Shown in pieces: positions 17,406 to 52,785 of a DNA stretch of 64,000 bases; position 1 is the first letter of the stretch; each line of letters opens with the position of its first letter. The stretch is from an uncultured Candidatus Saccharibacteria bacterium. GTDB taxonomy: Bacteria; Patescibacteriota; Minisyncoccia; Phycocordibacterales; UBA9973. A model generated the notes under the pieces. It saw only the letters and a program-made list of their open reading frames with translations, did not search any database and was not told where the DNA came from. The DNA is taken from assembly GCA_964591445.1 (NCBI GenBank), contig CAZQAW010000002.1:67394-131393 (forward strand), written 5' to 3'. The position numbers were made by a program, and so were the translations under genes.

Positions 17406-17418
17406 GAGCCTGTTATTG

Positions 17419-17490
17419 TGCACTCGGAGGGATTCGAACCCCCAACAACGGTTCCGAAGACCGGTATGATATCCATTTCACCACGAGTGC
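17419..17490 (-). tRNA. tRNA-Arg (anticodon TCG)
   Basis: 72-nt cloverleaf by hand: acceptor GCACTCG/CGAGTGC, anticodon loop CTTCGGA, T-arm GGGGGTTCGAATCCCTC; one mismatch in the anticodon stem. Confidence 0.7.
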
Positions 17491-17600
17491 GTTTATTTTT
17501 AATGCACTTCATTATATGTTATTTATCGAAATATGTAAAATATGTGTTTATTTTATTGCACTTTTATTTCAAACATAGTACAATTCACCTACATAAATTT

Positions 17601-17671
17601 GCGGTGTTGGTTTAGTGGTAGAACACGTCCTTGCCAAGGATGAGACAGGAGTTCGATTCTCCTACGCCGCA
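17601..17671 (+). tRNA. tRNA-Gly (anticodon GCC)
   Basis: Acceptor GCGGTGT/ACGCCGC, D-arm TAGTGGTAGA, anticodon loop TTGCCAA, T-arm GGAGTTCGATTCTCC. Confidence 0.8.
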
Positions 17672-17844
17672 CATTAGTTTTACTCAATCTATATTAAAAA
17701 AGTCCTTGATGGATGTCTGACCTTTATTCCCCATTTTTACCCATATTTTTCAACAAACTGTGGATAACTATGTGTACATTGGTGATAAAAGACACATTTT
17801 TAGTCTTTTATAGTCAATAAGTCTGAAATTAAGATATATCAGTC

Positions 17845-17883
17845 GCAGCAAAAAATCCTTATTTTATAAGGATTTTTTGCTGC
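17845..17883. other. perfect 17-bp stem / 5-nt loop hairpin (GCAGCAAAAAATCCTTA-TTTTA-TAAGGATTTTTTGCTGC)
   Basis: Exact inverted repeat in the 350-bp non-coding region between tRNA-Gly and yraN; the T-runs lie inside the stem, so it is not a classical intrinsic terminator. Confidence 0.6.
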
Positions 17884-17927
17884 TTATCCTATAAATCTTG
17901 TCTTTTTTGGCTTTTAACATACTTATA

Positions 17928-18016
17928 TGTTTCACGTGAAACAGTTTCATATGAAACACCACATAAAATCTCGATTTTTGGCATCTTTAGAAAAAATTCA
18001 TGTTTCATATGAAACA
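17928..18016. promoter_or_regulatory. three palindromic operator-like sites TGTTTCAYRTGAAACA upstream of yraN
   Basis: 17928..17943 TGTTTCACGTGAAACA (perfect 16-bp palindrome), 17944..17957 GTTTCATATGAAAC (abutting), 18001..18016 TGTTTCATATGAAACA (perfect; 9 bp before the ATG at 18025). Confidence 0.55.
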
Positions 18017-18024
18017 ATAGCCTT

Positions 18025-18480
18025 ATGCCAAAGGTTTTTACTTCAAAAAGCCAAAAAATAGGGGAGTTGGGTGAAGAAATTGCCTGTAAATATCTTATTT
18101 CTAAAGGATTTAGAGTTTTGGAACGCAATTATACAAAGAAGTGGGGAGAAATAGACATAATTGCAGAACGTGATAGGAAAATCTACTTTATAGAGGTAAA
18201 AGCGGTTTCATGTGTAACATTGCCGGAGGTTTCTCAGTCAGACAATACCTCACCCCGGGCCTCTGGCCGACACTCTCCTACCTTAGGAGAGGGAAGAAGC
18301 CTTTTCCGTCCAGAAGAAAACATGCATCCAATGAAAGTCCGCAAGTTCTTAAGGACAATTCAAACGTACTTGATCCAAAGGAAAATAGAAGGGGAGTGGC
18401 AAGCAGATCTGTATTGCGTGTATATCCAGCTTGAAAGCCGCAAGGCAAGGGTGACGAAAATAGAAAACATTATTGGTTGA
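18025..18480 (+). CDS. yraN: YraN/UPF0102 family endonuclease-like protein carrying an in-frame repeat-derived insertion
   Basis: KYLISKGFRVLERNYTKKWGEIDIIAERDRKIYFIEVKA ... DLYCVYIQL matches the YraN core; about 30 extra residues (SQSDNTSPRASGRHSPTLGEGRSLF) are encoded by a family-A repeat fragment. Confidence 0.7.
   Translation: MPKVFTSKSQKIGELGEEIACKYLISKGFRVLERNYTKKWGEIDIIAERDRKIYFIEVKAVSCVTLPEVSQSDNTSPRASGRHSPTLGEGRSLFRPEENMHPMKVRKFLRTIQTYLIQRKIEGEWQADLYCVYIQLESRKARVTKIENIIG
18224..18302. repeat. family-A palindromic element, partial copy inside the yraN reading frame
   Basis: CAATACCTCACCCCG...CCGACACTCTCCTACCTTAGGAGAGGGAAG shares the ACCTCACCCCG and CTCTCCTACnTTAGGAGAGGG blocks with 11207..11318. 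Confidence 0.6.
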
Positions 18481-18564
18481 CAAAAATATATTTTTGTATA
18501 TAATTTTCTTAAATAATCCAACAAGTAACAAACAAAACAATTAAACTATTTAAACTTTGACACA

Positions 18565-19134
18565 ATGAAACCATCATTATTAGTAATTAACAAAGACCCA
18601 AGAACTGAGCAAAATGTTAATTTGGCTGCTCAAGTGAACCAAAACTTTTTTCGTGACAGAAAAGAGTTTGCAAAACTCTATACTCTGTTTATGCAAACAG
18701 ACAAGAAAAAATGGCTCGATTTATTTTTTCTCAAAGCAAAGATGATACATTTTGCTTGTGGCAAGCATCATGAGAGTATACTTCGTGCATTGCCCACAGT
18801 AAAAATTCCGGAAATGACTCCGGAGGAACGCTTCAATACTTTTTTTGACTATTACCACGAACACCACAAAGATCTGTTTGTTCGTAATGCGATTGTAAAA
18901 ATAATATGCGAAGATCCGGATATTTCTACAGGCCTACGGGTTTCGCTTATTGGTATTCATTATGGTTTTGCTGAGAAAAAGCTCACTTTTGGAGACTATA
19001 TGAAACGTCTCCGTGAAGGAGATTTGAGTCCTAAAACAATCAGTCAAGCTTTTGATCATGCCCATCGTATTACTGAGTGGGAGCAACTAACTACTTTTTT
19101 GACTGCAAAGAACATTATATATATGCATAATTAG
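18565..19134 (+). CDS. hypothetical protein
   Basis: 189-aa ORF, His-rich central region (HHESILRALP...YYHEHHKD), followed by a terminator. Confidence 0.5.
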   Translation: MKPSLLVINKDPRTEQNVNLAAQVNQNFFRDRKEFAKLYTLFMQTDKKKWLDLFFLKAKMIHFACGKHHESILRALPTVKIPEMTPEERFNTFFDYYHEHHKDLFVRNAIVKIICEDPDISTGLRVSLIGIHYGFAEKKLTFGDYMKRLREGDLSPKTISQAFDHAHRITEWEQLTTFLTAKNIIYMHN

Positions 19135-19158
19135 CACTTTAGCTCCATCATTTTGCAA

Positions 19159-19186
19159 AGAACCCCAAATCAGGGGTTCTTTTTTA
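19159..19186 (+). terminator. rho-independent terminator
   Basis: AGAACCCCAAATCAGGGGTTCT then TTTTTT. Confidence 0.6.
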
Positions 19187-19234
19187 TTGTAAAAAACGAA
19201 AAATATGCTAAGATAGGGGAGTTATATGGGCTTT

Positions 19235-19306
19235 CGGGGTGTAGTATATCGGTAGTATACATGTTTTGGGAACATGAGGGCAGGGTTCGATTCCCTGCAC
19301 CCCGAC
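19235..19306 (+). tRNA. tRNA-Pro (anticodon GGG)
   Basis: Acceptor CGGGGTG/CACCCCG, anticodon stem ATGTT/AACAT with loop TTGGGAA, T-arm CAGGGTTCGATTCCCTG. Confidence 0.75.
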
Positions 19307-19333
19307 ACGGTTTCTGGTAGAATGATTGAAAAT

Positions 19334-19403
19334 GCGGGATTAGTTTAGTGGTAGAACTACAGTTTTCCAAACTGTTGGCAAGAGTTCGATTCTCTTATCC
19401 CGC
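19334..19403 (+). tRNA. tRNA-Gly (anticodon TCC)
   Basis: Acceptor GCGGGAT/ATCCCGC, anticodon stem ACAGT/ACTGT with loop TTTCCAA, T-arm AGAGTTCGATTCTCT. Confidence 0.8.
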
Positions 19404-19415
19404 ACAGACAAACAA

Positions 19416-29753: not shown

Positions 29754-31541
29754 ATGTTCCGCCACTTCTTTCACTTCAATATGAATCTCAAAAGAGCGCT
29801 CGCTCCGCTCGCGCTCTTCCTCATTGTCGGCATCTCATCCGTCGTTTTTCCCATGATGGCAAAAGGCGCGCCGGTTCCTCCGACTGCTCAGCAGTCTCTT
29901 GTCGGCTACGCACTTACAAATACGTATGGACTCATCAGTTTTAGTGGGCCTTCGCACGGTGTTTTTGTCGACGCATTGGGCAATCTTACAGGATACGCTT
30001 GGAGTGAAAACGTTGGTTGGCTCAAATTTGGCGGACTTTCCGGTTTCCCTACGACAGACCCGACGGTAACAAGCGCCAACGCAAAGATCGTTACGAGCGG
30101 CGGAGTAAGATACTTGAAAGGCTGGGCGCGATTTTGCTCGCCAGTTGCCGGATTGCCAAGCTGTATTCCGGGAGAAAACTATTCTATGAATGGTGGATGG
30201 ACTGGCTGGGTGTCTTTTGATGGATCAAACCGCACTATTTCTATTTCAAACACAGAAACTCCTGCCGGCTCTGACAAATATCCACTTTCTGGCTATGGCT
30301 GGGGTGCAGATATGGTAAGTATCAATGGCCTTCCTGAACCGCAGACTGTTTCTGGCACGCCTCCTACTATATATAATATGCGTCCCGGTGTGGGCTGGGT
30401 AGATATGTCTGGTGTTGCGCTTGTTGACGATGTTGTAGTAGAAGAAGAGCTCACTCCAAAACTTTATATTTCTGCTTCACCAAACCCAACTTCAAGCGGA
30501 GATACGAACCTCACATACTACACAGACCCTGGTTCAAGCTTCCAAACTTGCGCGGGCGGTTTGGCGGTAGACAATATTACGGGTACTTCACAAAGTGTTG
30601 CTGGTTGGACAGGCCCACTTCTGACGCTTGGCGGATCGACCATCACTCGCACGGTGTTAAACGTAAACGTGCCATATGACGAAACAGTCTTTGCCGTTTC
30701 GTGTTACCATGCAGCGACAACTACTACAGTTACAACAACTATTTTAGTAGAAAAACTTCCACTTGCTCTTACTCCAAAAATCGATTTGTGTTTAGTAGAT
30801 CCAACTACTGGCTTGAATGCTTCTGGTTGTGGCGCTGGTACTGTAAACGTTACTCAGAACTACGCTTCAACTGCAACTATCGCGCAGCTTATTTGGAAAT
30901 CTGTAACGCCGGGTGTGACTTACACAAGTTGTGCCGGTGTCGGCGGAATGGCTTCCGACTGGGATCGTGTTAACCAAACTCCGGTGCCGGGCACAAGCTA
31001 TTCTCCTGTCAGATCTCGACTCATGCATCCAACTCAAGCAACAACTGTGTACCAACTCAAATGTACTGACGCAGACACTGGTTTGCCTGTTGTCTCAAAC
31101 ACAGCAACTGCGTTCCGTGTGCCAGACGTTCTTGATCCACAAGTCGATCTCAAAGTAGATATCGCTGGCGACTCTATTCCAAGCTTCTCTGACGGACCAC
31201 TCATCTTCTCTACAACTTCTGGTGGAAGTGTTGACCTCATGTGGGAAACACAAGACATCACCAGCCCTTACTGCCAAGTGACTTCAACGCAAGTATACGA
31301 AGATCCGGTTACAGGAACACAAACTAATGTACAAGGCGCATGGCCGCTTCACAATGTTTCCTCAGCATCATTCTCGACCGAAAGTGTAAGCATTTCTTCA
31401 ACAACAACATTCCGTATCGACTGTCCGGATCCAACTGGAGTTTCTCGAAGTGTTTCTGACTTGGCAAAAGTTCGCGTGCCAGGTACGTTAGACCCAGCTG
31501 ATCCTGCCGGTCCGAAGAAGCCAAAGTTTATTGAAATATAA
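29754..31541 (+). CDS. large secreted protein carrying a GYAWSENVGWLKF repeat motif
   Basis: 595 aa from MFRHFF (ATG 29754); signal/TM LAPLALFLIVGISSVVFPMMA; the motif is shared with the 50827..52785 protein. Confidence 0.6.
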   Translation: MFRHFFHFNMNLKRALAPLALFLIVGISSVVFPMMAKGAPVPPTAQQSLVGYALTNTYGLISFSGPSHGVFVDALGNLTGYAWSENVGWLKFGGLSGFPTTDPTVTSANAKIVTSGGVRYLKGWARFCSPVAGLPSCIPGENYSMNGGWTGWVSFDGSNRTISISNTETPAGSDKYPLSGYGWGADMVSINGLPEPQTVSGTPPTIYNMRPGVGWVDMSGVALVDDVVVEEELTPKLYISASPNPTSSGDTNLTYYTDPGSSFQTCAGGLAVDNITGTSQSVAGWTGPLLTLGGSTITRTVLNVNVPYDETVFAVSCYHAATTTTVTTTILVEKLPLALTPKIDLCLVDPTTGLNASGCGAGTVNVTQNYASTATIAQLIWKSVTPGVTYTSCAGVGGMASDWDRVNQTPVPGTSYSPVRSRLMHPTQATTVYQLKCTDADTGLPVVSNTATAFRVPDVLDPQVDLKVDIAGDSIPSFSDGPLIFSTTSGGSVDLMWETQDITSPYCQVTSTQVYEDPVTGTQTNVQGAWPLHNVSSASFSTESVSISSTTTFRIDCPDPTGVSRSVSDLAKVRVPGTLDPADPAGPKKPKFIEI

Positions 31542-31628: not shown

Positions 31629-33032
31629 ATGAAAAAACAATTCGTCACATATGCAAAGATGTTCATAGTCGCAGTCGCCATTTTTTCTGGCGTGGGTTAC
31701 ATCTCTGCGCAAACTCCTCCGCCATGTTCAAGCCCGAGCGCTTGTAACGTTGCAGCTCCGGTAAATATTGGCACGACTGGCCAGATCAAAAATGGCAGTT
31801 TCGGAGTCGGTGGTGCATCGAGCAGTTTCTTTGTTTCGTTCTTCAAGTCATACTTGATGGGCGAAACGTGGGTAGGTCATGATGGAAGTATTATCAGCGC
31901 TGCAGGTTTTGCTGCGCCGGGAACACTTAAGGTGTATGGTGGTGCAAATAAATACGGCATCTTTGATGGAGCCTATGCAAAATTCGGTGATGTAAACAAT
32001 GGCAAATATCTCGAACTTGGTTACGACGGAGCGCATTCGACTATCGATGGCAAGCATTCAAATTCGGGCGACCGTGGACTTCTTCTCAATTATTATTCTG
32101 GTGGCAATGTTGGCATCGGTGGTGGGCCTGGTGGAAACAGTAACCTTACTGTTTCTGGTGATGCAACTATTTCTGAAAATGCTTACATACAAAACGGCAA
32201 ACTTGCTATAGGTAACAACGGAGGACAAGTTGAACGTTTGCAAGTTACCGGAGGTGCGAGAATTGACTCCGGATATGTTGTCGGAAACCTTGATGTTGGA
32301 AATGAACTTACTGTTGATGTTGATATCCGTGTATCAAGCAAGGGAGGTTCAGGCAATGCATACGCATGTTTTGATGCCAGCGGAAATCTATTTCGTTCAG
32401 ATACTCCATGTATCACCGCTCCACCACCTGCAACGGGTACCGCGACATTCTCTACTCCTGGAACTTCAAACTGGACAGTACCAGCCGGCGTAACTTCTAT
32501 CACAGTTAAGATTTGGGGCGCTGGCGGAGGCGGAGCTTCAGGTTCTTTTTTTGGTCCAGGAGTTGATGGTACAGATGGCGGTAATTCTGAATTCAAAAAT
32601 GGCGGCACTACAGTATTGTTTGCCGGTGGAGGTGAAAAAGGTATATCTATGTCAACTTACCCTGGTAATGGAAATTCACGTGGGGGTGATGGAGGAACCG
32701 CTTGGGGAGGTACAATAAATAATACGGGAAGTGATGGTGGCGAGACTTGTTCTTTTGTGCCGTCTCAAACTACGGGGGGTGTTCCAAGTCCTTCTGCGCC
32801 GGTTGCTGGTAAGGGTGTAGGTGGAGGTGGTAATTGTGGTTCAGGTGGAGCTGGAAACAACAAAGGACCTGGTGCGGGTGGAGGTGGCGGTTATTCTCAA
32901 GGAACATTTACTGTAGTTCCTGGTGGAGCTTATACTCTTGTTATTGGTGGTGCTGGTCTTGGTGGAGATGTTTTTGGAAGCCAAGATGATGGTTATCCTG
33001 GTGGTGCTGGTTACGCAACGATTTCTTACTAA
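31629..33032 (+). CDS. secreted glycine-rich beta-helix-like protein
   Basis: Signal peptide; long Gly-rich repeats (GGGPGGNSNLTVSGDATIS..., GGGGASGSFFGPGVDGTDGGN...) typical of fibre/beta-helical surface proteins. Confidence 0.55.
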   Translation: MKKQFVTYAKMFIVAVAIFSGVGYISAQTPPPCSSPSACNVAAPVNIGTTGQIKNGSFGVGGASSSFFVSFFKSYLMGETWVGHDGSIISAAGFAAPGTLKVYGGANKYGIFDGAYAKFGDVNNGKYLELGYDGAHSTIDGKHSNSGDRGLLLNYYSGGNVGIGGGPGGNSNLTVSGDATISENAYIQNGKLAIGNNGGQVERLQVTGGARIDSGYVVGNLDVGNELTVDVDIRVSSKGGSGNAYACFDASGNLFRSDTPCITAPPPATGTATFSTPGTSNWTVPAGVTSITVKIWGAGGGGASGSFFGPGVDGTDGGNSEFKNGGTTVLFAGGGEKGISMSTYPGNGNSRGGDGGTAWGGTINNTGSDGGETCSFVPSQTTGGVPSPSAPVAGKGVGGGGNCGSGGAGNNKGPGAGGGGGYSQGTFTVVPGGAYTLVIGGAGLGGDVFGSQDDGYPGGAGYATISY

Positions 33033-38447: not shown

Positions 38448-41400
38448 ATGAAAAAAAATACTTTCCTTGTCGGTTTGAGTGTTGTGGTGGTGTTCGTGCT
38501 CATCTTCAACATTTTCAAAACTGACAGTTTGCGTGGGATCTTGAAGCGTGTCGGCAATCGCGGCCAGCAGGCAGCGGTCAATAGCGTCCCGACGACGATC
38601 CCAGACTATTATTGGCGTTTCGAAGGCGGAATGACTCCAACCAACGGTTCTGGTAACTACCCGGTTACCGGTGGCTCCGTTGCTACTGGCTGTAGCGCAG
38701 CTGGCGGATGCTTAAACACGACTGTTTCAAGCGTTAACGGCACATTCCCAAGCATCGGCAGTGTAAGCAAGCTCTCGTACGAGTTCTTGTTTAAAGCTGG
38801 CCCACGCTTTGAAACGACTATTTTCTTCGATGATCGACCTTCTCAGACAGCATTCTCTGCCATGCTTGAATGGCCTGCCTCCGGTCTTACTATTCCGAAG
38901 CTCTGGTTCCAGGTCAACGGAGACCGACTTTCTGTCGATCTTACTGGTATTGGCCAGAAACGATGGGGGTATTTTGCCGATGGCAATTTCCACCACATGG
39001 TCTTTACTTATGATGGCGCGTCAGGAAAGCGCACTATCTACGTTGATGGAGTAAAATTTGCTGAAAAAACTGGCACTACAGGCAACGTAAACCTAAGTTC
39101 AAACAACCTTTACTCTGGAGGTCTTACGAGCTATGAACGTTTGAGTGGCTCTATAGATGAAGTCGCTATCTATAAAAATGTAGCTATCGACCCTCTTCTC
39201 GTCGCCCAGCACTACCAAGATGCGGTAGTAAACGGCGTTGCATACAATACAACAAACACCACAGTAGCAAACGTGCCAGCTGCACCTGCTTCAACTGCTG
39301 GTATCGATTCTTCTGAATATCCAGTTGGCTACCCTACTCCAGGATCTATGGCTTCTGCTACCACACAGTTGAAGTCATATCCGCTTCCTCGATACAAGCC
39401 AGGAAACACTCTTATGAAAAACGTTGACTGGATAGACGGTATGTATTTTGGAGGACGCTTCCAACCGGGCGTGTCTGATCCTCAAGCCGTGACGAACAGT
39501 ACAACTATCAAAGACGAACTTGCAAAGAACTGGAACTATGCGGTGATGATCAACTGGTCAAGCGGTAATGAATTCGTTCCTGCATGGAAGACGCTTATTA
39601 ACAACAATCCAAGTTACCAGTTTGATTTCACGACGCTTCGAGCGCAAGTCAACGGTGGTACAAAAATTACTAACCAAACTCTTCCAAATGATCGTTATTT
39701 CCAAAACGCATCAGGATCAGCTTTGGTCCCCGCTGGTTGCGGAACAGCGTCAGGTACAAAATATTGGCGTGCTGTTCCAAATTTTGAAGCAGACTATATG
39801 AGCGATGGTACTTCTGCGGCAGGGTGGGTAGCTGGCGCATTGTCAGGACTCAATGCCGACCGAAAGGTTCGTATCTTGAACGAAAACGGAGAAGTACATT
39901 TGTACTACACGAATGGTTGCGGATCTCAAGACCCTCTTATCGAATCAAGCCGTGCAGCTTATAACAGCGCAAACGGTACAAGCTTGACCACAAAGCAATA
40001 TATCGGCGAACAATATCGTCGAAGTATGCAGAACGAATATTTTACTCCAATCAAGAATGCAAGCCCGTCACGACTTACTGACACAAAGTTCACTTTGTAC
40101 CAGGTGTCTGGACGTGGAGAATATGCTTACGATTGGTCCACTGCTCGAAAAATCAACACCCCAATTAATGGCCAATACTACTCAACACTCGATTTCTACC
40201 AAGGTTTCTATGGAGCGACTGGACCAAACAACTGGGCAAACGGTGTTGGGGCAGGTAATGGACTCGGAGTATTTCTTGAAGCTCGCAAGAACGAAATTGC
40301 GCTTGGAGATAAACTCTTCTCTCCATTCGTAGCAGCAGGTTGGATGCATTCGAATATACATCCTTATACAAATACAACGTATTCTCAGACAGACGTCCGA
40401 CCTGGACAATGGCTTGGAATGCTCAAGCTTTTGGGTGCTATCGGTGCCGAATTTTATTACACAGGTTACTTTAACGAAGGTGGTAACTACCAGAACTGTA
40501 CGACATCTGGTGGTACATGCCCTGCTCTACCACAGACATATGCATGGCAAGCAGTCATGCCTTCATACGCACAAGGCGCAATGAGCCGAGCTGAAGATTT
40601 GCTTCGAGGCACACTCATTACAAACACTGCGGGTAACTTGCCGGCTGTGTACACTAACCCAACATCCAACGATGGCTTCTTGCTTGCAACAGGAGACAAG
40701 ACAGTTCCCGCATTCGCTCGACAAAGCGGTAGTAAATATTTGATCACCGCCGCGGTCATGCGCAACCACAATATGCAAGAGTCTGCCCAAGAACAGACAA
40801 AGAACGTGAATGTCACTGTCGGTGGAGACAACCTCCGTATCCAAGCTCGTCAACAAGGAAGCATGTACGTGTATGACAAATCAAACACGGCGGCGCCGAT
40901 CTTTTACCAGATCGACGGATGGCATGAACGTGCTCACCCAAGCTACTGGACTGGCGACTTTAGTATCGAAGCTGAAATGCCTGACTCTGGTACAGCACAG
41001 CTCGTCACATACGGCCCAGGTGTTGCTTCAAAAGATTTTACTCCTGGCAACTACACGACAGCCGTCAAGAATGCTTCAGGAACTCTTTCATACAATTTCC
41101 AACCTCGAAACGCTGCATCAAGTGGTACAGAAACGCGTTACCTCTGGTTCCGCGCAAACAACAACTCTACGACAGCTGCTTCAACGGGAAGCTTTGCTGT
41201 AGATTCTGGTGCTGCACAAACAGTAAGCTTGCCAGCAAATAGCGGCAACGTTTGGTGCAACAAGAACTCTGCTGGCCAAGTCATGGCGTTCTCTGTGAGT
41301 CAAAATGCAGACCATCAGTTGAAGTACACTGCATCAAATGCAAACCTTTATGTTGATCAGTTCGTCCTTACGACAAATCCAAACCTCGGACTTGGTACAT

Positions 41401-43631
41401 GTACCGGCGGCGCGGGAACTTCCGACACGATTCTACCCAGTATATCCATCACCTCGCCAACTACTAGCGCGACCTACTCTACTTCCACTCCTTCTATTAC
41501 TCTCTCTGGTAGCGCTTCTGACAATGTGGCTGTTACGTCGGTCGTCGCGGTAAACGCAGCAGCAGGCGCATCCGCAATCAGTATCAGCGGTACGACATCT
41601 TGGACCGGAAGTGTGTCACTTGTGTCCGGCTTGAACAGTCTTGTTGTGACAGCATACGATGCAGCTGGAAACCAAAAGCAAGCAACGCTTGATGTTACGT
41701 ACACACCAGCAGACACTGTTCTTCCAAACGTTTCTATTGTGGCACCGGTTGCTTCTGGTGGAACATATCTTGCAACTTCTAACTCCCTCACCACTCTTGC
41801 CGGCACCTCTTCCGACAACGTCGGAGTCACCCAAGTAACATGGGTCAACTCACTCGGCGGCTCTGGTACAGCAACAGGAACAACAAGCTGGTCTGTGCCT
41901 TCGATTGCGCTTTCCAACGGCTCTAACGTGATTACGGTCACAGCCAAAGATGCGGCAAACAATACGAAGACTGCAAGTATCACAGTAGTTCGAGATACGA
42001 CAGCCCCAACAGTTTCTGTCACAGTTCCTACAGCTGGTGCATCATTTACTGGCACAAGCCCTATCACTTTGACTGCAAATGCGACTGACAACGTAGCTAT
42101 CGACCATGTCGACTTCTACTATGGCTCAAACCAATTCATCGGCGGCGCGACAACTGTCACCGGTGGCAACTACACTCGCACATGGACACCAAGCACAAGC
42201 GGGTCTATCGGCCTTTACGCTATCGCATATGACACATCTGGAAATCCAAAGACTTCTGCAACAGTTACAATCTCTGTCAGTCTTTCAACTCCGGACACTA
42301 TCGCTCCGACAGTACAAATGTCTGCTCCGGCAGCTGGTGCAACAGTGTCTGGCACAGCGGTCACTCTTGGTGCAGTTGCAAGTGACAACACGGGTGTATC
42401 TTCTGTAGCATTCTACTTGGATGGAGTGGCGATCTCTGGCGCAATCGATACGACAGGCAACAATCCAAACACGAATGGCACCGGCATCACCGGCCAACTC
42501 TATGAAGCGGTATGGAATACATCTTCAGTTTCAAATGGAACACATACACTTTCTGCTCGAGCAACAGATGCGGCTGGTAATATCAAAAATTCATCGACAG
42601 TTTCGATCACGGTTTCAAATGTAGTCGGCCAACCAGATCTTATAGTTACAGATCTCAGCTGGACTCCGGCATCACCAGTTCTTGGTTCAGTTATTACATT
42701 TAGTGCAGTGGTGAAAAATGTAGGAAATGCAGCAACACCTGCAGGAAAAGTGACAAGCGTTACTTTCTACAACAACGAAGGCACTGTCATCGGTTGTGGT
42801 GACTCTTATACTCAGTCCATCGCAGCTGGCGCAAGCATTACGGTGACAGCTGGACAGACTTCATCTGTCACAAGCAACTGGTGTAACACTACTCTTGGCG
42901 GACAAATTCCTCCAACGTGGATTGCTACAGGTAGTGCATTTGAAGCACGAGCTGAAGTTGACGACATCAACCGTATTACTGAAAGCAATGAGACAAACAA
43001 CATGTTGACTACTGTATATAATCCTCCGGCAGATACGACTGCTCCAACTGTTGCTATCACTTCTCCGACAACGTCTGCAACATACAGTTCAACAAGTGCT
43101 ACACTTGCGAACCTTGCCGGCACCTCTTCCGACAACGTCGGAGTCACCCAAGTAACATGGGTCAACTCACTCGGCGGCTCTGGTACAGCAACAGGAACAA
43201 CAAGCTGGTCTGTGCCTTCGATTGCGCTGCTTAGTGGTACAAATGTGATTACAATCACTGCTTATGATGCATCAGGAAATACTGCAACCAAGCAGCTTGC
43301 AGTGTCATACGCAGTTGCATCAAGCGATACAGTTGCACCAACGGTCACTATTACGAGCCCGGCTAACAATGCCAATGTCTCAAACACTTCTAATACGACA
43401 TTTGTTGCCACAGCAACGGACAATGTCGGCGTAACTGAAGTGAAATTTTTTCTCGGGGGCACTACAACGGCAGCGAAATGCACTCTTTCTTCTCCTACTA
43501 CTGCACCTAGTACTTACACATGTTCGTTCAAAGTACCGTCCGTCTTCTTCGGATGGGGAACTTCGACCATAACAGTACAGGCAAAAGACGCAGCAGGAAA
43601 TACGAAAGTGACAAGCATCAAAGTTCGCTAA
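38448..43631 (+). CDS. giant (1727 aa) membrane-anchored adhesin-like protein: LamG/ConA-like domain, about 600-aa unassigned central domain, about 7 Ig-like repeats and a CARDB-like domain
   Basis: N-terminal TM; LamG-like block FHHMVFTYDGASGKRTIYVDGVKF...GSIDEVAIYK; repeated DTxAPTVxITSP...SDNVGVTxV Ig-like modules; CARDB-like PDLIVTDLSWTPASPVLGSVITFSAVVKNVGNAATP. Confidence 0.75.
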   Translation: MKKNTFLVGLSVVVVFVLIFNIFKTDSLRGILKRVGNRGQQAAVNSVPTTIPDYYWRFEGGMTPTNGSGNYPVTGGSVATGCSAAGGCLNTTVSSVNGTFPSIGSVSKLSYEFLFKAGPRFETTIFFDDRPSQTAFSAMLEWPASGLTIPKLWFQVNGDRLSVDLTGIGQKRWGYFADGNFHHMVFTYDGASGKRTIYVDGVKFAEKTGTTGNVNLSSNNLYSGGLTSYERLSGSIDEVAIYKNVAIDPLLVAQHYQDAVVNGVAYNTTNTTVANVPAAPASTAGIDSSEYPVGYPTPGSMASATTQLKSYPLPRYKPGNTLMKNVDWIDGMYFGGRFQPGVSDPQAVTNSTTIKDELAKNWNYAVMINWSSGNEFVPAWKTLINNNPSYQFDFTTLRAQVNGGTKITNQTLPNDRYFQNASGSALVPAGCGTASGTKYWRAVPNFEADYMSDGTSAAGWVAGALSGLNADRKVRILNENGEVHLYYTNGCGSQDPLIESSRAAYNSANGTSLTTKQYIGEQYRRSMQNEYFTPIKNASPSRLTDTKFTLYQVSGRGEYAYDWSTARKINTPINGQYYSTLDFYQGFYGATGPNNWANGVGAGNGLGVFLEARKNEIALGDKLFSPFVAAGWMHSNIHPYTNTTYSQTDVRPGQWLGMLKLLGAIGAEFYYTGYFNEGGNYQNCTTSGGTCPALPQTYAWQAVMPSYAQGAMSRAEDLLRGTLITNTAGNLPAVYTNPTSNDGFLLATGDKTVPAFARQSGSKYLITAAVMRNHNMQESAQEQTKNVNVTVGGDNLRIQARQQGSMYVYDKSNTAAPIFYQIDGWHERAHPSYWTGDFSIEAEMPDSGTAQLVTYGPGVASKDFTPGNYTTAVKNASGTLSYNFQPRNAASSGTETRYLWFRANNNSTTAASTGSFAVDSGAAQTVSLPANSGNVWCNKNSAGQVMAFSVSQNADHQLKYTASNANLYVDQFVLTTNPNLGLGTCTGGAGTSDTILPSISITSPTTSATYSTSTPSITLSGSASDNVAVTSVVAVNAAAGASAISISGTTSWTGSVSLVSGLNSLVVTAYDAAGNQKQATLDVTYTPADTVLPNVSIVAPVASGGTYLATSNSLTTLAGTSSDNVGVTQVTWVNSLGGSGTATGTTSWSVPSIALSNGSNVITVTAKDAANNTKTASITVVRDTTAPTVSVTVPTAGASFTGTSPITLTANATDNVAIDHVDFYYGSNQFIGGATTVTGGNYTRTWTPSTSGSIGLYAIAYDTSGNPKTSATVTISVSLSTPDTIAPTVQMSAPAAGATVSGTAVTLGAVASDNTGVSSVAFYLDGVAISGAIDTTGNNPNTNGTGITGQLYEAVWNTSSVSNGTHTLSARATDAAGNIKNSSTVSITVSNVVGQPDLIVTDLSWTPASPVLGSVITFSAVVKNVGNAATPAGKVTSVTFYNNEGTVIGCGDSYTQSIAAGASITVTAGQTSSVTSNWCNTTLGGQIPPTWIATGSAFEARAEVDDINRITESNETNNMLTTVYNPPADTTAPTVAITSPTTSATYSSTSATLANLAGTSSDNVGVTQVTWVNSLGGSGTATGTTSWSVPSIALLSGTNVITITAYDASGNTATKQLAVSYAVASSDTVAPTVTITSPANNANVSNTSNTTFVATATDNVGVTEVKFFLGGTTTAAKCTLSSPTTAPSTYTCSFKVPSVFFGWGTSTITVQAKDAAGNTKVTSIKVR
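41796..41911 (+). repeat. intragenic 116-nt exact duplication, copy 1
   Basis: CTTGCCGGCACCTCTTCCGACAACGTCGGAGTCACCCAAG...TCGATTGCGCT identical to 43113..43228 (encodes LAGTSSDNVGVTQVTWVNSLGGSGTATGTTSWSVPSIAL). Confidence 0.85.
43113..43228 (+). repeat. intragenic 116-nt exact duplication, copy 2
   Basis: Identical to 41796..41911 at nucleotide level. Confidence 0.85.
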
Positions 43632-47478: not shown

Positions 47479-49266
47479 TTATTTAAAACAATAATGCTCC
47501 CAGGTAGTAGTCGGTTTGATGGTCGGAGTTTTGTAGTCCGGCAATGTGTCTTCGCGCATGTAGATTATTTTAAAGTTGTCGAGCTTCTGCCCGTCTTCCT
47601 TGTGGCTGTTGTTCCACTGTCGGCACAAATATTGCCCGTAGTACAAACGATACTTGCTGTAATCGCTTCGCCACAAATTCATCATGTATTTTTGCCAGCG
47701 TTGGTCGAAATACGTTTTCGAAACGAGCATCGGTTTGCCATAGTTTACCGGGCCGCCGTTTTTGTAGAGGTCAACCAAAGTTCCATCGCTCAGCGTGCCG
47801 GGAATAATGTACCAGCCGTCATCTATGAGCGGGTAAGGCGCAAACATGTCGAACTTTTGGTCGAGGCGTGTGACCCAGGCAAAAGGTTTCAAACTTTCGG
47901 GAATGATTTTCTTTGCACCGCCAAGCGTGTCGACGTTCCACAAAACAATATAAATAGTCACAAGCACAAGCGCTGTACTTTTCACTGCACGCACAACATT
48001 CTTCCGTTTTTCTTTGCCCGGAGAAAATATAACTTTCTTTGGTGGCAAGCAAATGGTGAGTCGTGAGTTTGCAGTTGTGCGATACAAATATTCTCCCACA
48101 TGGTGAATACCTGGTAATTTGAATACGAATACAAGCGGCCACCAGAGCGGAGAAAAACGAAGTGTGGCGATCAAACCATCAAATCCAAAAAACTTCCTGC
48201 CTTTTTCGTCTACTACAACCCATGAATTTTCTTTGCGCATGAGAGCTTCTATTTCTGCATCATTTTGCGCAGGCAAAATAGTTGTTTTCGGAGAAAGGAA
48301 AAGCAAACGTTTCAAGTATTGTACTGTGCGAGTGCAGAATCCGCAGTCTTTATCAAAGTAAATCGTGAGCCCAGCTTTGCGAGAAAATGCGAACCATGGG
48401 AGCACTTTGTCCCAGAAGATCGAAGGCAGAAGCCCGAGTGTGATAGCAATGCTGATCGCTCCGAAAAGCCCGATCGACATGGAAAGATTGATACCGATCT
48501 GGAACATTGCGAACAAAACAACTCCGACAAGGCGTGTATATTGATTCCATAAAGGGAAAATAAAAAGAAGGGTGCCATAAATCTCAAGCCAGATAGTCGA
48601 ATATGTGAGAAACGTAAGCGCGCGCGGGAAGCCAAGCAAAAAATGCCCGAACGGAGTAGTGAGCTGGTCGATGCTCAGTGCATAATACAGTGCGGTGCCA
48701 TCTTTCCATTGCACGCCTGTTTTCAAAAGTCCGGCAAAAAGATAGAAGACGAAAATCTGCGCAATGTAGCCGACAGTTGCGGCAGAAAACACGAGCTTTT
48801 CTTCGGCCGGTTTTGTATAGTTGCGGAAATTGTCAAAGCTCCATCGTGCGCCCCACGGCAGGAACATTGCAAAAAACATCACGCATCGCAAGATGACGTC
48901 GCCGCCTTGAATAACGAGAGGATTTCTATTTTGTACAGAAATAATAAGGAACCACGAAAGTACTGTTGCTAAAGTCGTGCGGTAGCCAATGAATACTGCG
49001 ACGGCAAGCAAGCCGGTGATGATGAAAAGAATTCCTTCAAAAAAAGCCGTGCCGCTCATGTGATGCACCGAAATGAGCCAAGGATTGTTGAAAAGTTCAA
49101 GAAGATGCGCGCGCGGCAATACGCCCAGATCTGTATAATGCGCCACCAAGCTCCGCCCGCGTTCGATAGTATCAAGCACAAGTATGAGCCCGATCGAGAT
49201 ACGCATCAAAGCCAAAGATCGGTAGTCGAGAGAGAAAAGCTTCTTCAAGTATTCGGTTATTTTCAT
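47479..49266 (-). CDS. HTTM domain membrane protein fused to a DCC1-like thiol-disulfide oxidoreductase (DUF393) and a C-terminal domain of unknown function
   Basis: N-terminal polytopic region with the HTTM (vitamin-K-carboxylase-like) topology; central IYFDKDCGFCTRTVQYLK matches the DCC/DUF393 CxxC motif; roughly 200-aa C-terminal domain unassigned. Confidence 0.7.
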   Translation of the reverse strand: MKITEYLKKLFSLDYRSLALMRISIGLILVLDTIERGRSLVAHYTDLGVLPRAHLLELFNNPWLISVHHMSGTAFFEGILFIITGLLAVAVFIGYRTTLATVLSWFLIISVQNRNPLVIQGGDVILRCVMFFAMFLPWGARWSFDNFRNYTKPAEEKLVFSAATVGYIAQIFVFYLFAGLLKTGVQWKDGTALYYALSIDQLTTPFGHFLLGFPRALTFLTYSTIWLEIYGTLLFIFPLWNQYTRLVGVVLFAMFQIGINLSMSIGLFGAISIAITLGLLPSIFWDKVLPWFAFSRKAGLTIYFDKDCGFCTRTVQYLKRLLFLSPKTTILPAQNDAEIEALMRKENSWVVVDEKGRKFFGFDGLIATLRFSPLWWPLVFVFKLPGIHHVGEYLYRTTANSRLTICLPPKKVIFSPGKEKRKNVVRAVKSTALVLVTIYIVLWNVDTLGGAKKIIPESLKPFAWVTRLDQKFDMFAPYPLIDDGWYIIPGTLSDGTLVDLYKNGGPVNYGKPMLVSKTYFDQRWQKYMMNLWRSDYSKYRLYYGQYLCRQWNNSHKEDGQKLDNFKIIYMREDTLPDYKTPTIKPTTTWEHYCFK

Positions 49267-50207: not shown

Positions 50208-50825
50208 ATGCAAGAGCTCGACGCTTTGTTCTATATAGTCATACTCATTATGTCCGTCGTGGTGCACGAGGTTGCTCACGGCTATGCGGCGTACTATTTT
50301 GGCGATACGACTGCCCGCGACCAAGGTCGGCTTACTTTGAACCCGATCAAGCATTTGGACATGTTTGGGTCGGTCATCATCCCGCTTATTCTTATCCTTA
50401 CCAAAGCTGGCTTCGTTTTTGGCTGGGCAAAGCCGGTGCCTTACAATCCGAACAATTTGTCTGACCGAAAAACGGGAACATTGTGGGTCGCAAGCGCAGG
50501 CATCATTGCAAATCTTGTGCTCGCAGTTTTCTTTGGGCTTATACTTCGTTTTGCTGGCGCGCATTTGCCGGGTGCGGTTAGTATTATTCTAAGCACTATC
50601 GTTTTTGTAAATATCGTCCTTGCAATCTTCAATCTCATTCCGCTTCCGCCGCTTGATGGTTCGAAAATTCTTTTTACTTTACTCGGACATCGCTCACATA
50701 AAGTCGAACGATTTCTAGAAACGTACGCACTTGCATTCGTGCTTATATTTGTGTTTTTCATTTGGAGGTATGTCGCACCGGTGATCGTTTGGCTCTTTAC
50801 TATTATTACAGGCATTCACCCATAA
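50208..50825 (+). CDS. site-2 protease family (peptidase M50) intramembrane metalloprotease
   Basis: HEVAHG (HExxH) in TM1 and NLIPLPPLDGS (LDG motif) in a later TM. Confidence 0.8.
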   Translation: MQELDALFYIVILIMSVVVHEVAHGYAAYYFGDTTARDQGRLTLNPIKHLDMFGSVIIPLILILTKAGFVFGWAKPVPYNPNNLSDRKTGTLWVASAGIIANLVLAVFFGLILRFAGAHLPGAVSIILSTIVFVNIVLAIFNLIPLPPLDGSKILFTLLGHRSHKVERFLETYALAFVLIFVFFIWRYVAPVIVWLFTIITGIHP

Positions 50826-50826
50826 T

Positions 50827-52785
50827 ATGAAAAAGTTCGTCACAGCATCTCTTTTTTTGCTTGCTACACTTTTTGTTTTTTTTCTCGCGCCTCGTTTTTC
50901 TCAAGCATCTGCAACAGTTGGAAGCATTGACCCAACGTCTTCTGGCAACTACAAAGCAAAACTTTTGTATGATGGAAGCGTTGTTAATTTCGGATATTTT
51001 CCGACGACGAATCCAAGCAAGCAAGTTTCGGTAACGACAAGCGAGCTTGATGGATACATCTGGGGTGAGACGATCGGCTGGGTGAGTTTGAATTGCTCAA
51101 ACAACAGTTCGTGCGGATCTTCCAATTTCAAAGTTTCCAATACTTCAAGCGGAGTTCTTTCTGGCTACGCGTGGGGAGAAAATGCTGGTTGGGTAAACTT
51201 TGGTCCGTTTGCAAATTCTGCTACTCCGTCCGTTGCTATCGACTCGACCGGATATTTTTCTGGTTTCGCATGGAGTGAAAATTTTGGCTGGATACAGTTT
51301 GATTGCGGAGTAGTAAATGCTTGCGTGAACACCGACTGGCGATATCCGTCTGGCACAAGCGGCGGAGGCGGCGTTGTTATTCCACCAACGACTACAGGCA
51401 CGAGCGGCACGACAACCACAAATGGTACGACAGATGGAAATGGAAACACTGTCGGCTCCACTGATGCAGGTGGAACAACCGATACTTCTGGCACAACCGG
51501 AACCGGGTTTGGAACTACGAGCGGCGGAAGCACTGGCTCATCTGGCAGTACAACCGGAAGCGGATTTGACCCGGGAACTTCCGGAGGCACAGGCGGGTTT
51601 GTGGGTGGATTTTTCTCGACCGGCGGCGGTGCGCAAGGTGGAAACAATGGCGGAAGCGGAAATGGCGCAAGTTCTGGCGGGCAAAGCAATCCGAACAATC
51701 CAACTTCAGATTCTTCTTGTGGCTCGCTCAGTATATTAAACGCTATCGTTTGCACGGTTCTTGAAACGTATCACTTCACGCAAGAATCTTTTATTGACGT
51801 AGTTGGCGGCATACGAAATGTGCTCTCAACTCCGGAAGGCGATAGCATTACGAAAATCATTGCAATCGTCGGACTTATTTTCGGTGCGCTTTTTGCGGTA
51901 CTGCCCGTGCTCTTTGGCACACCGCTTTCATTTTCTGAAATCGTTCTCATCCCGTATCGTTTGTGGTCGCTGCTTATGACGCTCTTTGGGTTGCGCAAGC
52001 GTTCACGTCCATGGGGAACGGTGTATGACTCTGTCACCAAGCAGCCTCTTGATCCGGTAATGGTGACACTTTCCGACATGGATGGAAAAGAAATCGCAAC
52101 GTCGATCACCGATATGGATGGCCGCTACGGATTCTTGGTCGGCCCCGGCATGTATCGCATCACTCCGGCAAAAACACACTATTCGTTTCCATCGGCAAAG
52201 CTCGTCGGCAAGACGAGCGACGAAGTGTATCCGAATTTGTATTTCGGTTATCCAATAGAAATCACTCAAGAAAGTGAAGTCATCACCAAAAATATTCCGA
52301 TGGATCCGGACAATTTTGATTGGAACGAATTTGCAAAACGCGACCAGCATTTGATGACGTTCTATTCAAAACAAACTGTCATTGTGGCAAAAGTTGCAAG
52401 CGTGTTGTTCTCTGTCGGGTTTACGCTTTCGTTCATCGCGCTCGTGTCTTCGTTTGAACTGTACAATGTTTGTATCTTCGCGCTCTACATCGCCCTCTTT
52501 ATTTTGCGCGAAACTGGTTTGAAGACTCGCCCTGGCGGCAAACTTGTAGATAAAAGCGGCGCACCGCTTTCGTTCGGCGTTGTTCGAGTCTTTACTGCAA
52601 CTTCCAAAACGAATGTGGCTACGCGCGTTGCCGACAAATACGGCACGTATTATTGTCTTATCCAAAATGGCGAGTACTACGTGACCATCGAACGCAAAAA
52701 TGCCGACCAATCTTACACTGTACTCCTTACCTCACCAACTATTCATGTCACGAACGGATTTATCAACACGACCTTCACTATATAG
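50827..52785 (+). CDS. large membrane/surface protein with three G[YF]AW[SG]ENxGW repeats, a Gly/Thr/Ser-rich linker, TM helices and two CarbopepD_reg-like beta-sandwich domains
   Basis: GYIWGETIGWVSLNC, GYAWGENAGWVNFG, GFAWSENFGWIQFDC; (G/T/S)n region 51350..51700; TVYDSVTKQPLDPVMVTLSDMDGKEIATSITDMDGRYGF resembles carboxypeptidase-regulatory-like domains. Confidence 0.6.
   Translation: MKKFVTASLFLLATLFVFFLAPRFSQASATVGSIDPTSSGNYKAKLLYDGSVVNFGYFPTTNPSKQVSVTTSELDGYIWGETIGWVSLNCSNNSSCGSSNFKVSNTSSGVLSGYAWGENAGWVNFGPFANSATPSVAIDSTGYFSGFAWSENFGWIQFDCGVVNACVNTDWRYPSGTSGGGGVVIPPTTTGTSGTTTTNGTTDGNGNTVGSTDAGGTTDTSGTTGTGFGTTSGGSTGSSGSTTGSGFDPGTSGGTGGFVGGFFSTGGGAQGGNNGGSGNGASSGGQSNPNNPTSDSSCGSLSILNAIVCTVLETYHFTQESFIDVVGGIRNVLSTPEGDSITKIIAIVGLIFGALFAVLPVLFGTPLSFSEIVLIPYRLWSLLMTLFGLRKRSRPWGTVYDSVTKQPLDPVMVTLSDMDGKEIATSITDMDGRYGFLVGPGMYRITPAKTHYSFPSAKLVGKTSDEVYPNLYFGYPIEITQESEVITKNIPMDPDNFDWNEFAKRDQHLMTFYSKQTVIVAKVASVLFSVGFTLSFIALVSSFELYNVCIFALYIALFILRETGLKTRPGGKLVDKSGAPLSFGVVRVFTATSKTNVATRVADKYGTYYCLIQNGEYYVTIERKNADQSYTVLLTSPTIHVTNGFINTTFTI

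Follow-up and report, generated by a model that had tools for sequence, protein, structure and literature searches.

What is the tryptophan-rich repeat that two large secreted proteins of a single bacterium have in common, and what might it do at the cell surface? The window considered here is a 64,000-nucleotide stretch of contig CAZQAW010000002.1 (positions 67,394 to 131,393) from an uncultured Candidatus Saccharibacteria bacterium. It contains two open reading frames (ORFs) on the forward strand, p1 (29754..31541, 595 aa) and p2 (50827..52785, 652 aa), in whose translations the repeat was recognized. We found that the repeat forms the core of a closed, roughly 130-residue domain, composed of four tryptophan-rich beta-hairpin units and placed directly behind a Sec signal peptide. 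The family to which this domain belongs is common yet unnamed, being covered by neither Pfam, NCBIfam nor PDB. Genes of the family are coupled, reciprocally, across phyla and on the same strand, to genes of unanchored secreted proteins with a conserved proline-rich N-terminus. The family heads surface proteins of the Candidate Phyla Radiation (CPR)/Patescibacteria, in whose biology host attachment is central and poorly understood.

A four-unit domain behind the signal peptide

An earlier sequence-only reading had quoted four peptides as instances of one repeat, and all four were found in the translations, the p1 core comprising residues 80-92 (GYAWSENVGWLKF) and the p2 cores starting at residues 76, 113 and 146. 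When all six frames of the window were translated, the pattern G[YFW].W[SGAT][EDNQ]..GW matched four times, once in p1 and three times in p2, against about 1.5e-4 matches expected from residue frequencies, and no match fell outside the two ORFs. A profile hidden Markov model (HMM) of the family, built from outside homologues with the window sequences excluded, scored p2 at 117.8 bits and p1 at 40.7 bits, whereas the next-best ORF of the window reached 5.7 bits. The pattern and this independent profile thus agree that the repeat is common to both proteins. At the DNA level the copies are about 72% identical and differ synonymously, indicating that the repeats are old, have been preserved as protein sequence and did not arise by recent duplication. 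Both proteins open with a signal-peptide-like hydrophobic segment in a Kyte-Doolittle scan, in line with the secretion proposed for them. The accompanying proposal that they are paralogues did not hold: BLASTP of p1 against p2 aligned only 18 residues (E = 3e-5), the remainders of the two proteins match different homologues, and p1 and p2 have only the N-terminal domain in common.

With the p2 N-terminus as query, 52 small secreted proteins without a name were retrieved, each with four near-perfect units of the core G[FY]AWGENIGWINF. A profile of that region, used in a search of the kind that the sequence-only reading had recommended, revealed a very large family, with 9,078 representatives (50% identity clusters) at E ≤ 1e-3, 6,512 at E ≤ 1e-10 and 1,310 at E ≤ 1e-30; at 90% identity, 6,210 clusters were obtained at E ≤ 1e-10. 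Members occur in Patescibacteria, Planctomycetota, Acidobacteriota and Nitrospirota, and many are small (170-220 aa). The dimensions of the domain were determined on the 141 best representatives that hold it completely. Its length, taken from end-to-end matches, has a median of 130 aa (range 110-166), the first domain begins within 45 residues of the N-terminus in 118 of the 141 proteins, and each protein carries one to four copies. Exactly four strict cores, with the consensus G-[FY]-A-W-[GS]-E-N-x-G-W-[IV]-x-F, were counted in 191 of 239 domains. The narrow length, the end-to-end matching and the prevailing number of four cores indicate a closed four-unit domain and not an open repeat. The module of roughly 30-35 aa described earlier therefore stands as a module, with a measured unit length of about 28-37 aa, but it is four such units that make one domain. 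Likewise, the count of one repeat in p1 and three in p2 has to be replaced by four units in each protein, some of them degenerate or enlarged by insertions.

The predicted structure is all-beta, with one hairpin per W-x-E-N-x-G-W core. The AlphaFold2 model of a minimal member reached a predicted local distance difference test score (pLDDT) of 88.7 and a predicted template-modelling score (pTM) of 0.83, and that of the p2 domain a pLDDT of 77 and a pTM of 0.74. Of the beta-hairpin repeat that had been suggested, the hairpin is thus retained, while the free-standing repeat gives way to the closed domain. The two turn residues after the first Trp change in concert across the units, being EN, QN, AN or QS in all four; alternatively, units 1 and 3 carry one pair and units 2 and 4 another (TN/EN, AN/EN). 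This pattern suggests either a two-fold pseudo-symmetry or four functionally equivalent sites.

The sequences fused behind the domain indicate where it is displayed. Across 94 architectures with 44 co-occurring Pfam families, stalk and adhesin modules are found (TSP3_bac, Ig-like, PKD, Calx-beta, cadherin, MopE), and enzyme-like folds are rare. Relatives also carry sorting or anchor signals behind the domain, namely a GC-type dockerin, IPTL-CTERM, PEP-CTERM, Por_Secre_tail (type IX secretion) or a C-terminal transmembrane helix, the small planctomycete-type members ending in a GC-type dockerin or IPTL-CTERM. Together, these arrangements place the domain at the exposed N-terminal end of proteins whose attachment to the cell is provided by a different part.

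Searches for known relatives yielded no named family for the domain. In Pfam-A (2025) and NCBIfam (2026) the domain was uncovered in p1, p2 and the canonical members, in Pfam even at E ≤ 10, which bears out the statement of the sequence-only reading that it could match the repeat to no named family. PHROGs contributed nothing on the domain, the family profile met only unrelated proteins at chance level among PDB sequences (best E 0.14 and 0.51), and Foldseek returned nothing significant for two models against PDB and one against BFVD. No match to the canonical domain was obtained by tblastn in plasmid and phage collections, and literature searches yielded no papers on the domain motif or on the partner motif described below. 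No well-characterised family that would supply a function for the repeat, an outcome that the sequence-only reading had said would remove its novelty, emerged from Pfam, NCBIfam or PDB. Weak matches to PnpCD_PnpD_N in 13 of 128 members (best E = 2.9e-4) were attributed to chance, as neither the PDB profile search nor Foldseek supported them.

Gene pairing and a possible docking role

To describe the genomic surroundings of the domain, we used the 80 best of at least 585 genome loci, mostly from Patescibacteria (Paceibacterota, Nomurabacteria, Moranbacteria and others) and also from Acidobacteria, Phycisphaerae, Anaerohalosphaeraceae and Nitrospirae. Going by the loci that hold its nearest orthologues, the window itself looks like Paceibacterota. 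The largest cluster of neighbours comprises secreted fibre-like or Gly-rich proteins, present in 35 of the 80 loci and mostly at position -1. What these neighbours have in common is a peptide right after the signal peptide, and an HMM of this mature N-terminal motif detected partners in 37 of the 80 loci, including those of Acidobacteria, Planctomycetota and Nitrospirae. The partners are of several kinds (tail-fibre-like, parallel beta-helix, DUF1566-like and Hcp-like), and their motif occurs in subtypes. Type b, AGSLTPSASPAATsYTLxDIYxRL, is encoded in 38 of 87 loci, in 24 of these 38 immediately next to the domain gene, and all 24 adjacent pairs lie on the same strand. In the 87 loci, partners occupy position -1 in 21% and position +1 in 10% of cases, compared with 0-8% further away. 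Type a, [YF]A.PP....Y.PG.TLDP.C.PG...C.V, stands beside p2-type genes; outside the window it was found in nine other loci, next to a p2-type gene or one gene away (L009). Its mean identity is 66%, as opposed to 16% for the remainder of the partner protein, which identifies the N-terminus as the conserved part of the partner. Type c, P..PP.GN...P[ILV]N.G...Q.K.G, accompanies p1-type genes and is present in the window product of 31629..33032 and in loci L084 and L085. The window accordingly holds p2 beside a type-a partner and p1 beside a type-c partner, so that, judged from their motifs, cognate subtypes appear to occur within one genome.

Two further tests addressed this pairing. In an independent test on five small members chosen irrespective of context, most or all of them from outside the CPR, four directly adjoin a gene for a parallel beta-helix protein. 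Three of these four partners begin AG[SP]L[ND]PPxGP..PT.K.L.E..PR and the fourth (L090) has a truncated form; for the fifth member, a motif-bearing beta-helix gene lies about 4 kb upstream. For the reciprocal test, metagenome contigs were searched for the type-b motif, which gave 22 non-redundant loci with at least 3 kb of downstream sequence. A four-hairpin gene was present in 18 of the 22, all 36 domain ORFs were on the same strand, and 16 of 34 gaps measured 81 nt or less. The two members of a pair also differ in anchoring: a transmembrane-like segment after residue 60 was detected in 53 of 87 domain proteins and in 3 of 48 partners, and a hydrophobic C-terminus in none of the 48 partners.

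Some partners were peculiar in ways that we record separately. In two Planctomycetota loci, L074 (5711-6475) and L078 (770-1456), the proline-rich N-terminal motif sits on Hcp1/TssD-like bodies with a signal peptide; the body in L074 matches TIGR03344 at 51 bits, under the cut-off, that in L078 is similar by eye, and both genes adjoin four-hairpin plus dockerin-like genes. The planctomycete-type beta-helix partners at L089 137-1231 and L090 3926-4984 end in ...NANFT[HY], and the four-hairpin protein P0012 (L091 369-944) ends in ...SYNTH; these endings may represent a common C-terminal signal.

Some of the partners are linked to diversity-generating retroelements (DGRs). A reverse transcriptase gene separates the partner gene from the domain gene in 10 of the 80 loci, of which 7 also encode an Avd-like four-helix protein. 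Four loci were examined for repeats, and in each of them the partner gene has a variable repeat as its 3' end, matched by a template repeat close to the reverse transcriptase gene. The repeat pairs are 2605-2722 / 3343-3460 in L042, 1766-1898 / 2711-2843 in L050, 2664-2817 / 4215-4368 in L027 and 1462-1611 / 2497-2646 in L064, and 62 of the 64 mismatches within them fall at template adenines, which is the DGR signature. Full DGR cassettes (target gene, Avd-like protein, template repeat and reverse transcriptase) therefore lie directly upstream of four-hairpin genes in CPR genomes, and the variable repeat within the partner gene marks the partner as the diversified, ligand-binding component. 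The domain protein in 7 of the 10 DGR-linked loci is a type-I membrane protein with an N-terminal four-hairpin head and a C-terminal transmembrane helix followed by a basic tail. Roux et al. 2021 (PMC8144416) noted that in the DGR targets of CPR bacteria no transmembrane or conserved domain can be recognised, and left open whether these proteins are in fact free of the membrane. A 70-nt element with internal dyad symmetry was noticed in three copies in L050 (126-195, 1953-2022 and 4419-4488), placed on either side of the partner gene and of the DGR cassette and a short way upstream of the four-hairpin gene; the element possibly serves in regulation or resembles a terminator.

Given the reciprocal same-strand pairing, the asymmetry in anchoring and the conserved N-terminus of the partners, we suggest, as a tentative reading with a good though less than even standing, that the domain is an anchored docking module for the secreted partners encoded next to it, physical binding being what we infer from the gene data. 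In this model, a partner that is secreted, unanchored and encoded beside the domain gene would be caught by its conserved, proline-rich mature N-terminus on the aromatic surface of the four hairpins, perhaps in a manner mechanistically similar to the binding of polyproline peptides by Trp-rich WW/SH3 modules. A partner docked in this way would be tethered to the cell surface, its variable ligand-binding C-terminus facing outward. In the window, the pairs proposed in this way are p2 with the product of 52801..54357 and, less certainly, p1 with that of 31629..33032.

Several observations weigh against docking. The pairing of p1-type genes with type c is known from three loci only, the partner motif splits into at least three or four subtypes, and 15 of the 80 loci, p2-type in about 14 cases, have a tail-fibre-type (S74-homologous) neighbour, as compared with nine for the type-a motif. 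The N-terminal hydrophobic segment of the partners might, if uncleaved, anchor them directly, and adjacency can mirror the co-regulation of unrelated surface proteins. Finally, hairpins rich in Trp, Asn and Glu, present in up to four copies, together with the carbohydrate-active nature of several partners, suit a lectin equally well, and the best Foldseek matches, insignificant as they are, belong to fucose-binding beta-propeller lectins.

This last point leads to an alternative in which the domain is a lectin-like adhesin head, whose four (or two plus two) aromatic sites would bind a glycan or other surface polymer on a host cell, a particle or the biofilm matrix, and in which the neighbouring fibre and beta-helix genes would encode co-regulated surface proteins, not ligands. 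Conserved Trp, Glu/Gln and Asn in the hairpin turns, one to four tandem domains per protein, and turn residues that vary together (EN, QN or AN in all four units, or alternating TN/EN) all fit such a head, as does its location at the far N-terminal end of adhesin-like proteins that carry an anchor. A faint sequence similarity to the ChW cell-surface-binding repeat and the carbohydrate-active folds of several partners (beta-helix, S74 tail-fibre type) point the same way, yet no sequence or fold match to any lectin or carbohydrate-binding module family was obtained, and the 25 commonest of the 44 co-occurring Pfam families include no glycoside hydrolase. Moreover, a lectin alone leaves unexplained the reciprocal same-strand pairing with proteins of conserved N-terminal peptide. 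We consider a lectin-like head somewhat less likely than docking but its main rival, and the carbohydrate binding put forward in the sequence-only reading is not favoured: enzyme fusions are rare, and the conserved gene pairing, which is the strongest evidence, speaks for a protein ligand. The best available evidence thus favours a protein partner encoded next door, instead of or besides a carbohydrate.

The same adjacency can be read in yet another way, namely that the domain protein helps to fold, trimerise or export the adjacent partner, as phage tail-fibre assembly proteins do, and provides no permanent anchor. Tight same-strand adjacency to tail-fibre-like and tailspike-like proteins and the small size of many members (170-220 aa) agree with a role in assembly, but the domain proteins usually have anchors of their own or long stalks, or are large multi-domain adhesins, which is unexpected for a transient chaperone, and partners of the S74 type already hold an intramolecular chaperone. 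We regard an assembly role as improbable.

If the docking proposal is extended, the domain would act as the receptor in a non-covalent system of surface display, so far undescribed, that spans several phyla and that, in the CPR, could anchor DGR-diversified proteins and hold tail-fibre-like appendages. We put this wider proposition forward with more reserve, as a possibility that we rather doubt. Appendages held in this way may mediate contact between episymbiont and host. Should the docking model be right, bacteria would have a further, new means of protein display at their surface, and the retention on the cell of fibre, beta-helix and DGR-diversified binding proteins without an anchor would be explained. 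A simple annotation rule would also follow for a module of two genes that recurs in many thousands of metagenomic loci. Should docking prove wrong, a Pfam entry and a solved structure would still be warranted for the family, as it has a confident model with no detectable structural neighbour.

The p2 and p1 loci

All features of p2 lie on the forward strand. Its signal peptide (50827..50910) consists of MKK, a hydrophobic core and the cleavage region SQA|SA, and is followed by the four-hairpin domain (50914..51324), which is supported by the motif, the family HMM and the AlphaFold2 model. The four units begin at residues 41, 72, 109 and 142 and extend over 50947-50997, 51040-51093, 51151-51204 and 51250-51303, the first of them being degenerate; Cys90/Cys96 and Cys160/Cys166 may form two disulfides. 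Behind the domain, a low-complexity stalk of 125 aa (51352..51726), with 42 Gly, 28 Thr and 20 Ser, leads to the membrane-anchor half (51847..52782), whose hydrophobic segments at about residues 338-376 and 516-565 probably serve as the transmembrane anchor. Each hydrophobic segment is followed by a segment led by R-P-[WG]-G (RPWG at 394, RPGG at 568). The first of these matches the Pfam families SdrD_B, NOMO_5th and CarboxypepD_reg_2, all under the curated cut-offs, which weakly suggests that the R-P-[WG]-G segments are transthyretin-like (CarboxypepD_reg-like). Homologues of the C-terminal half were found in 34 of the 80 loci, mostly at 40-56% identity, indicating that full-length p2 orthologues are common.

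Upstream of p2, the gene for a small M50-family membrane protease identified by Pfam (50208..50825, forward strand) ends 2 nt before the p2 start, and is itself preceded by the gene for ribosomal protein L28 (49921..50166, reverse strand). The order L28 - M50 - p2-type gene is kept in 10 of the 80 loci, with M50 homologues in 12 altogether, and the protease is the syntenic context of p2. On the other side, 15 nt 3' of p2, the partner gene (52801..54357, forward strand) encodes a secreted Gly-rich tail-fibre-like protein with a Peptidase_S74 chaperone domain (Pfam, 1.1e-17) that also matches tail-fibre families of PHROGs. Its type-a motif (52906-52983, forward strand) is at the mature N-terminus, FA|VPPATKYDPGATLDPTCAPGDTNCSV. 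A prophage origin of this S74 gene was considered and is unlikely, as it recurs beside p2-type genes in the conserved chromosomal L28 - M50 - p2 context across CPR species.

The p1 gene belongs to a divergent subfamily with a Cys-bracketed insertion in unit 3. Its features, again on the forward strand, start with a signal peptide (29754..29867) whose hydrophobic core spans residues 12-39 in the Kyte-Doolittle scan, although the true start may be Met10 at 29781. The four-hairpin domain (29898..30413) was aligned with the p1-type subfamily A3 and the family HMM; its units begin at residues 49, 76, 121 and 177, and insertions extend it to about 172 aa. Unit 1 (29898-29948) is degenerate and has lost both Trp, unit 2 (29979-30035) is canonical, unit 3 (30114-30224) contains the Cys-loop insertion and unit 4 (30282-30413) an insertion of 25 aa. 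Homologues of the p1 type have the same layout, that is, a signal peptide, four units and one Cys-containing C-terminal region, and one of them, P0210, sits in a syntenic region. No Pfam family matched the Cys-containing C-terminal region of p1, and BLAST detected no internal repeats in its C-terminal part.

The p1 protein ends in the tail KPKFIEI (31518..31538), which fits the pattern P-x-[FYW]-x-E-[ILVFKRM], located no more than two residues from the C-terminus. The tail is present in 7 of 23 homologue matches, corresponding to 7 of the 11 long p1-type ones (314-359 aa); the carriers besides p1 are P0203, P0204, P0207, P0209, P0210, P0214 and P0221. It occurred in none of 1,125 other ORFs of related loci, and no hydrophobic segment follows it. 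In sequence the tail is similar to the strand with which p1's own C-terminal domains begin (TPKLYIS, TPKIDL, DPQVDL), so that it might act as a donor strand, or else as a signal for sorting or processing. The downstream gene (31629..33032, forward strand), 87 nt 3' of p1, encodes a secreted Gly-rich protein with a weak Gly_rich_2 match in Pfam, and carries its type-c motif, in the form P..PP....N...P[ILV]N.G...Q.K.G, at the mature N-terminus (31710-31796, forward strand).

Three other features of the window were recorded. A giant Ig-rich surface protein of 1,727 aa (38448..43631, forward strand), with Big_7, Big_13, CARDB, Big_3_3 and HYR domains and without the four-hairpin domain, is encoded between RecJ and RNase H/ComEC. 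The ORF 47479..49266 (reverse strand) fuses an HTTM domain of the vitamin-K-dependent carboxylase type to a DCC1-like thiol-disulfide oxidoreductase domain in this CPR-like genome. Four tRNA genes (Arg-TCG, Gly-GCC, Pro-TGG and Gly-TCC) at 17418..19405 are the only Rfam matches in the window.

Comparison with known repeats and docking systems

Among known surface-binding repeats, ChW (PF07538) comes closest to the four-hairpin units. It is the only one in Pfam with recurrent, mostly sub-threshold matches to family members (9 of 128; best E = 4.7e-5, 23.5 bits against a cut-off of 22), and it resembles them in being extracellular and in its hairpin-like [QE]-N-x-G-W core. ChW serves in non-covalent attachment to the cell surface, through a ligand that is not known (PMC5817068, PMC6700490). 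The domain might accordingly be a divergent ChW or cell-wall-binding repeat that fixes the protein to the producer's own wall. When 15 real ChW units from the phage contigs MT838047 and MT837030 were compared with our unit by hhalign, only 7 columns (ENxGW) were aligned, at a probability of 5%, and the domains of p1 and p2 were not matched by PF07538 even at E ≤ 10. Furthermore, ChW units of about 47 aa have a second conserved half, GttG...rlEAi.i.L, whereas the units described here measure 28-30 aa in this comparison and lack that half; ChW occurs in runs of 1-12, with suggested triplets, mostly in endolysins of Firmicutes and Actinobacteria, as opposed to a fixed set of four. Membership in ChW was rejected on the strength of the 7-column match, of a unit shorter than about 47-50 aa and of the missing second half. 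A wall anchor of this kind is also hard to reconcile with an N-terminal domain that occurs in diderm phyla as well as in the CPR, in proteins that already have other anchors, and we consider it very improbable.

Choline-binding (CW_binding_1) and clostridial toxin repeats are likewise secreted, aromatic-rich beta-hairpin repeats of 20-30 aa, but they form open solenoids of variable repeat number, while the present domain is fixed at four units. Membership in CW_binding_1 was dismissed in view of the missing Pfam match at E ≤ 10 and the absence of such a structure from the best 50 Foldseek PDB matches. The six-bladed beta-propeller fucose lectins of the AAL/AFL type headed the Foldseek results for both models and are, like the domain, built of repeated small beta-meanders, yet differ from it in size and repeat number. 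None of the propeller matches (AAL/AFL/PHL) was significant (best E = 0.41-0.44, probability ≤ 0.12, TM ≤ 0.24), and this assignment was not adopted.

Small beta-sheet modules of the WW, SH3 and GYF type bind polyproline-II peptides through conserved Trp/Tyr residues; they are intracellular, eukaryotic-type modules of 30-60 aa that are used singly. The resemblance lies in the partners described here, which begin with P-P-x-x-P-rich peptides, and no fold match to these modules was found. In functional terms only, there is an analogy to the cohesin-dockerin system of cellulosome scaffoldins and adaptors, in which anchored docking modules, present in one or several copies, receive unanchored cargo with a short terminal tag, often from clustered genes. 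The two systems have no kinship in sequence or fold, and the tag proposed here is an N-terminal proline-rich peptide instead of a Ca-binding dockerin. Some small members nevertheless combine the four-hairpin domain with a GC-type dockerin, in an adaptor-like arrangement that adds to the likeness.

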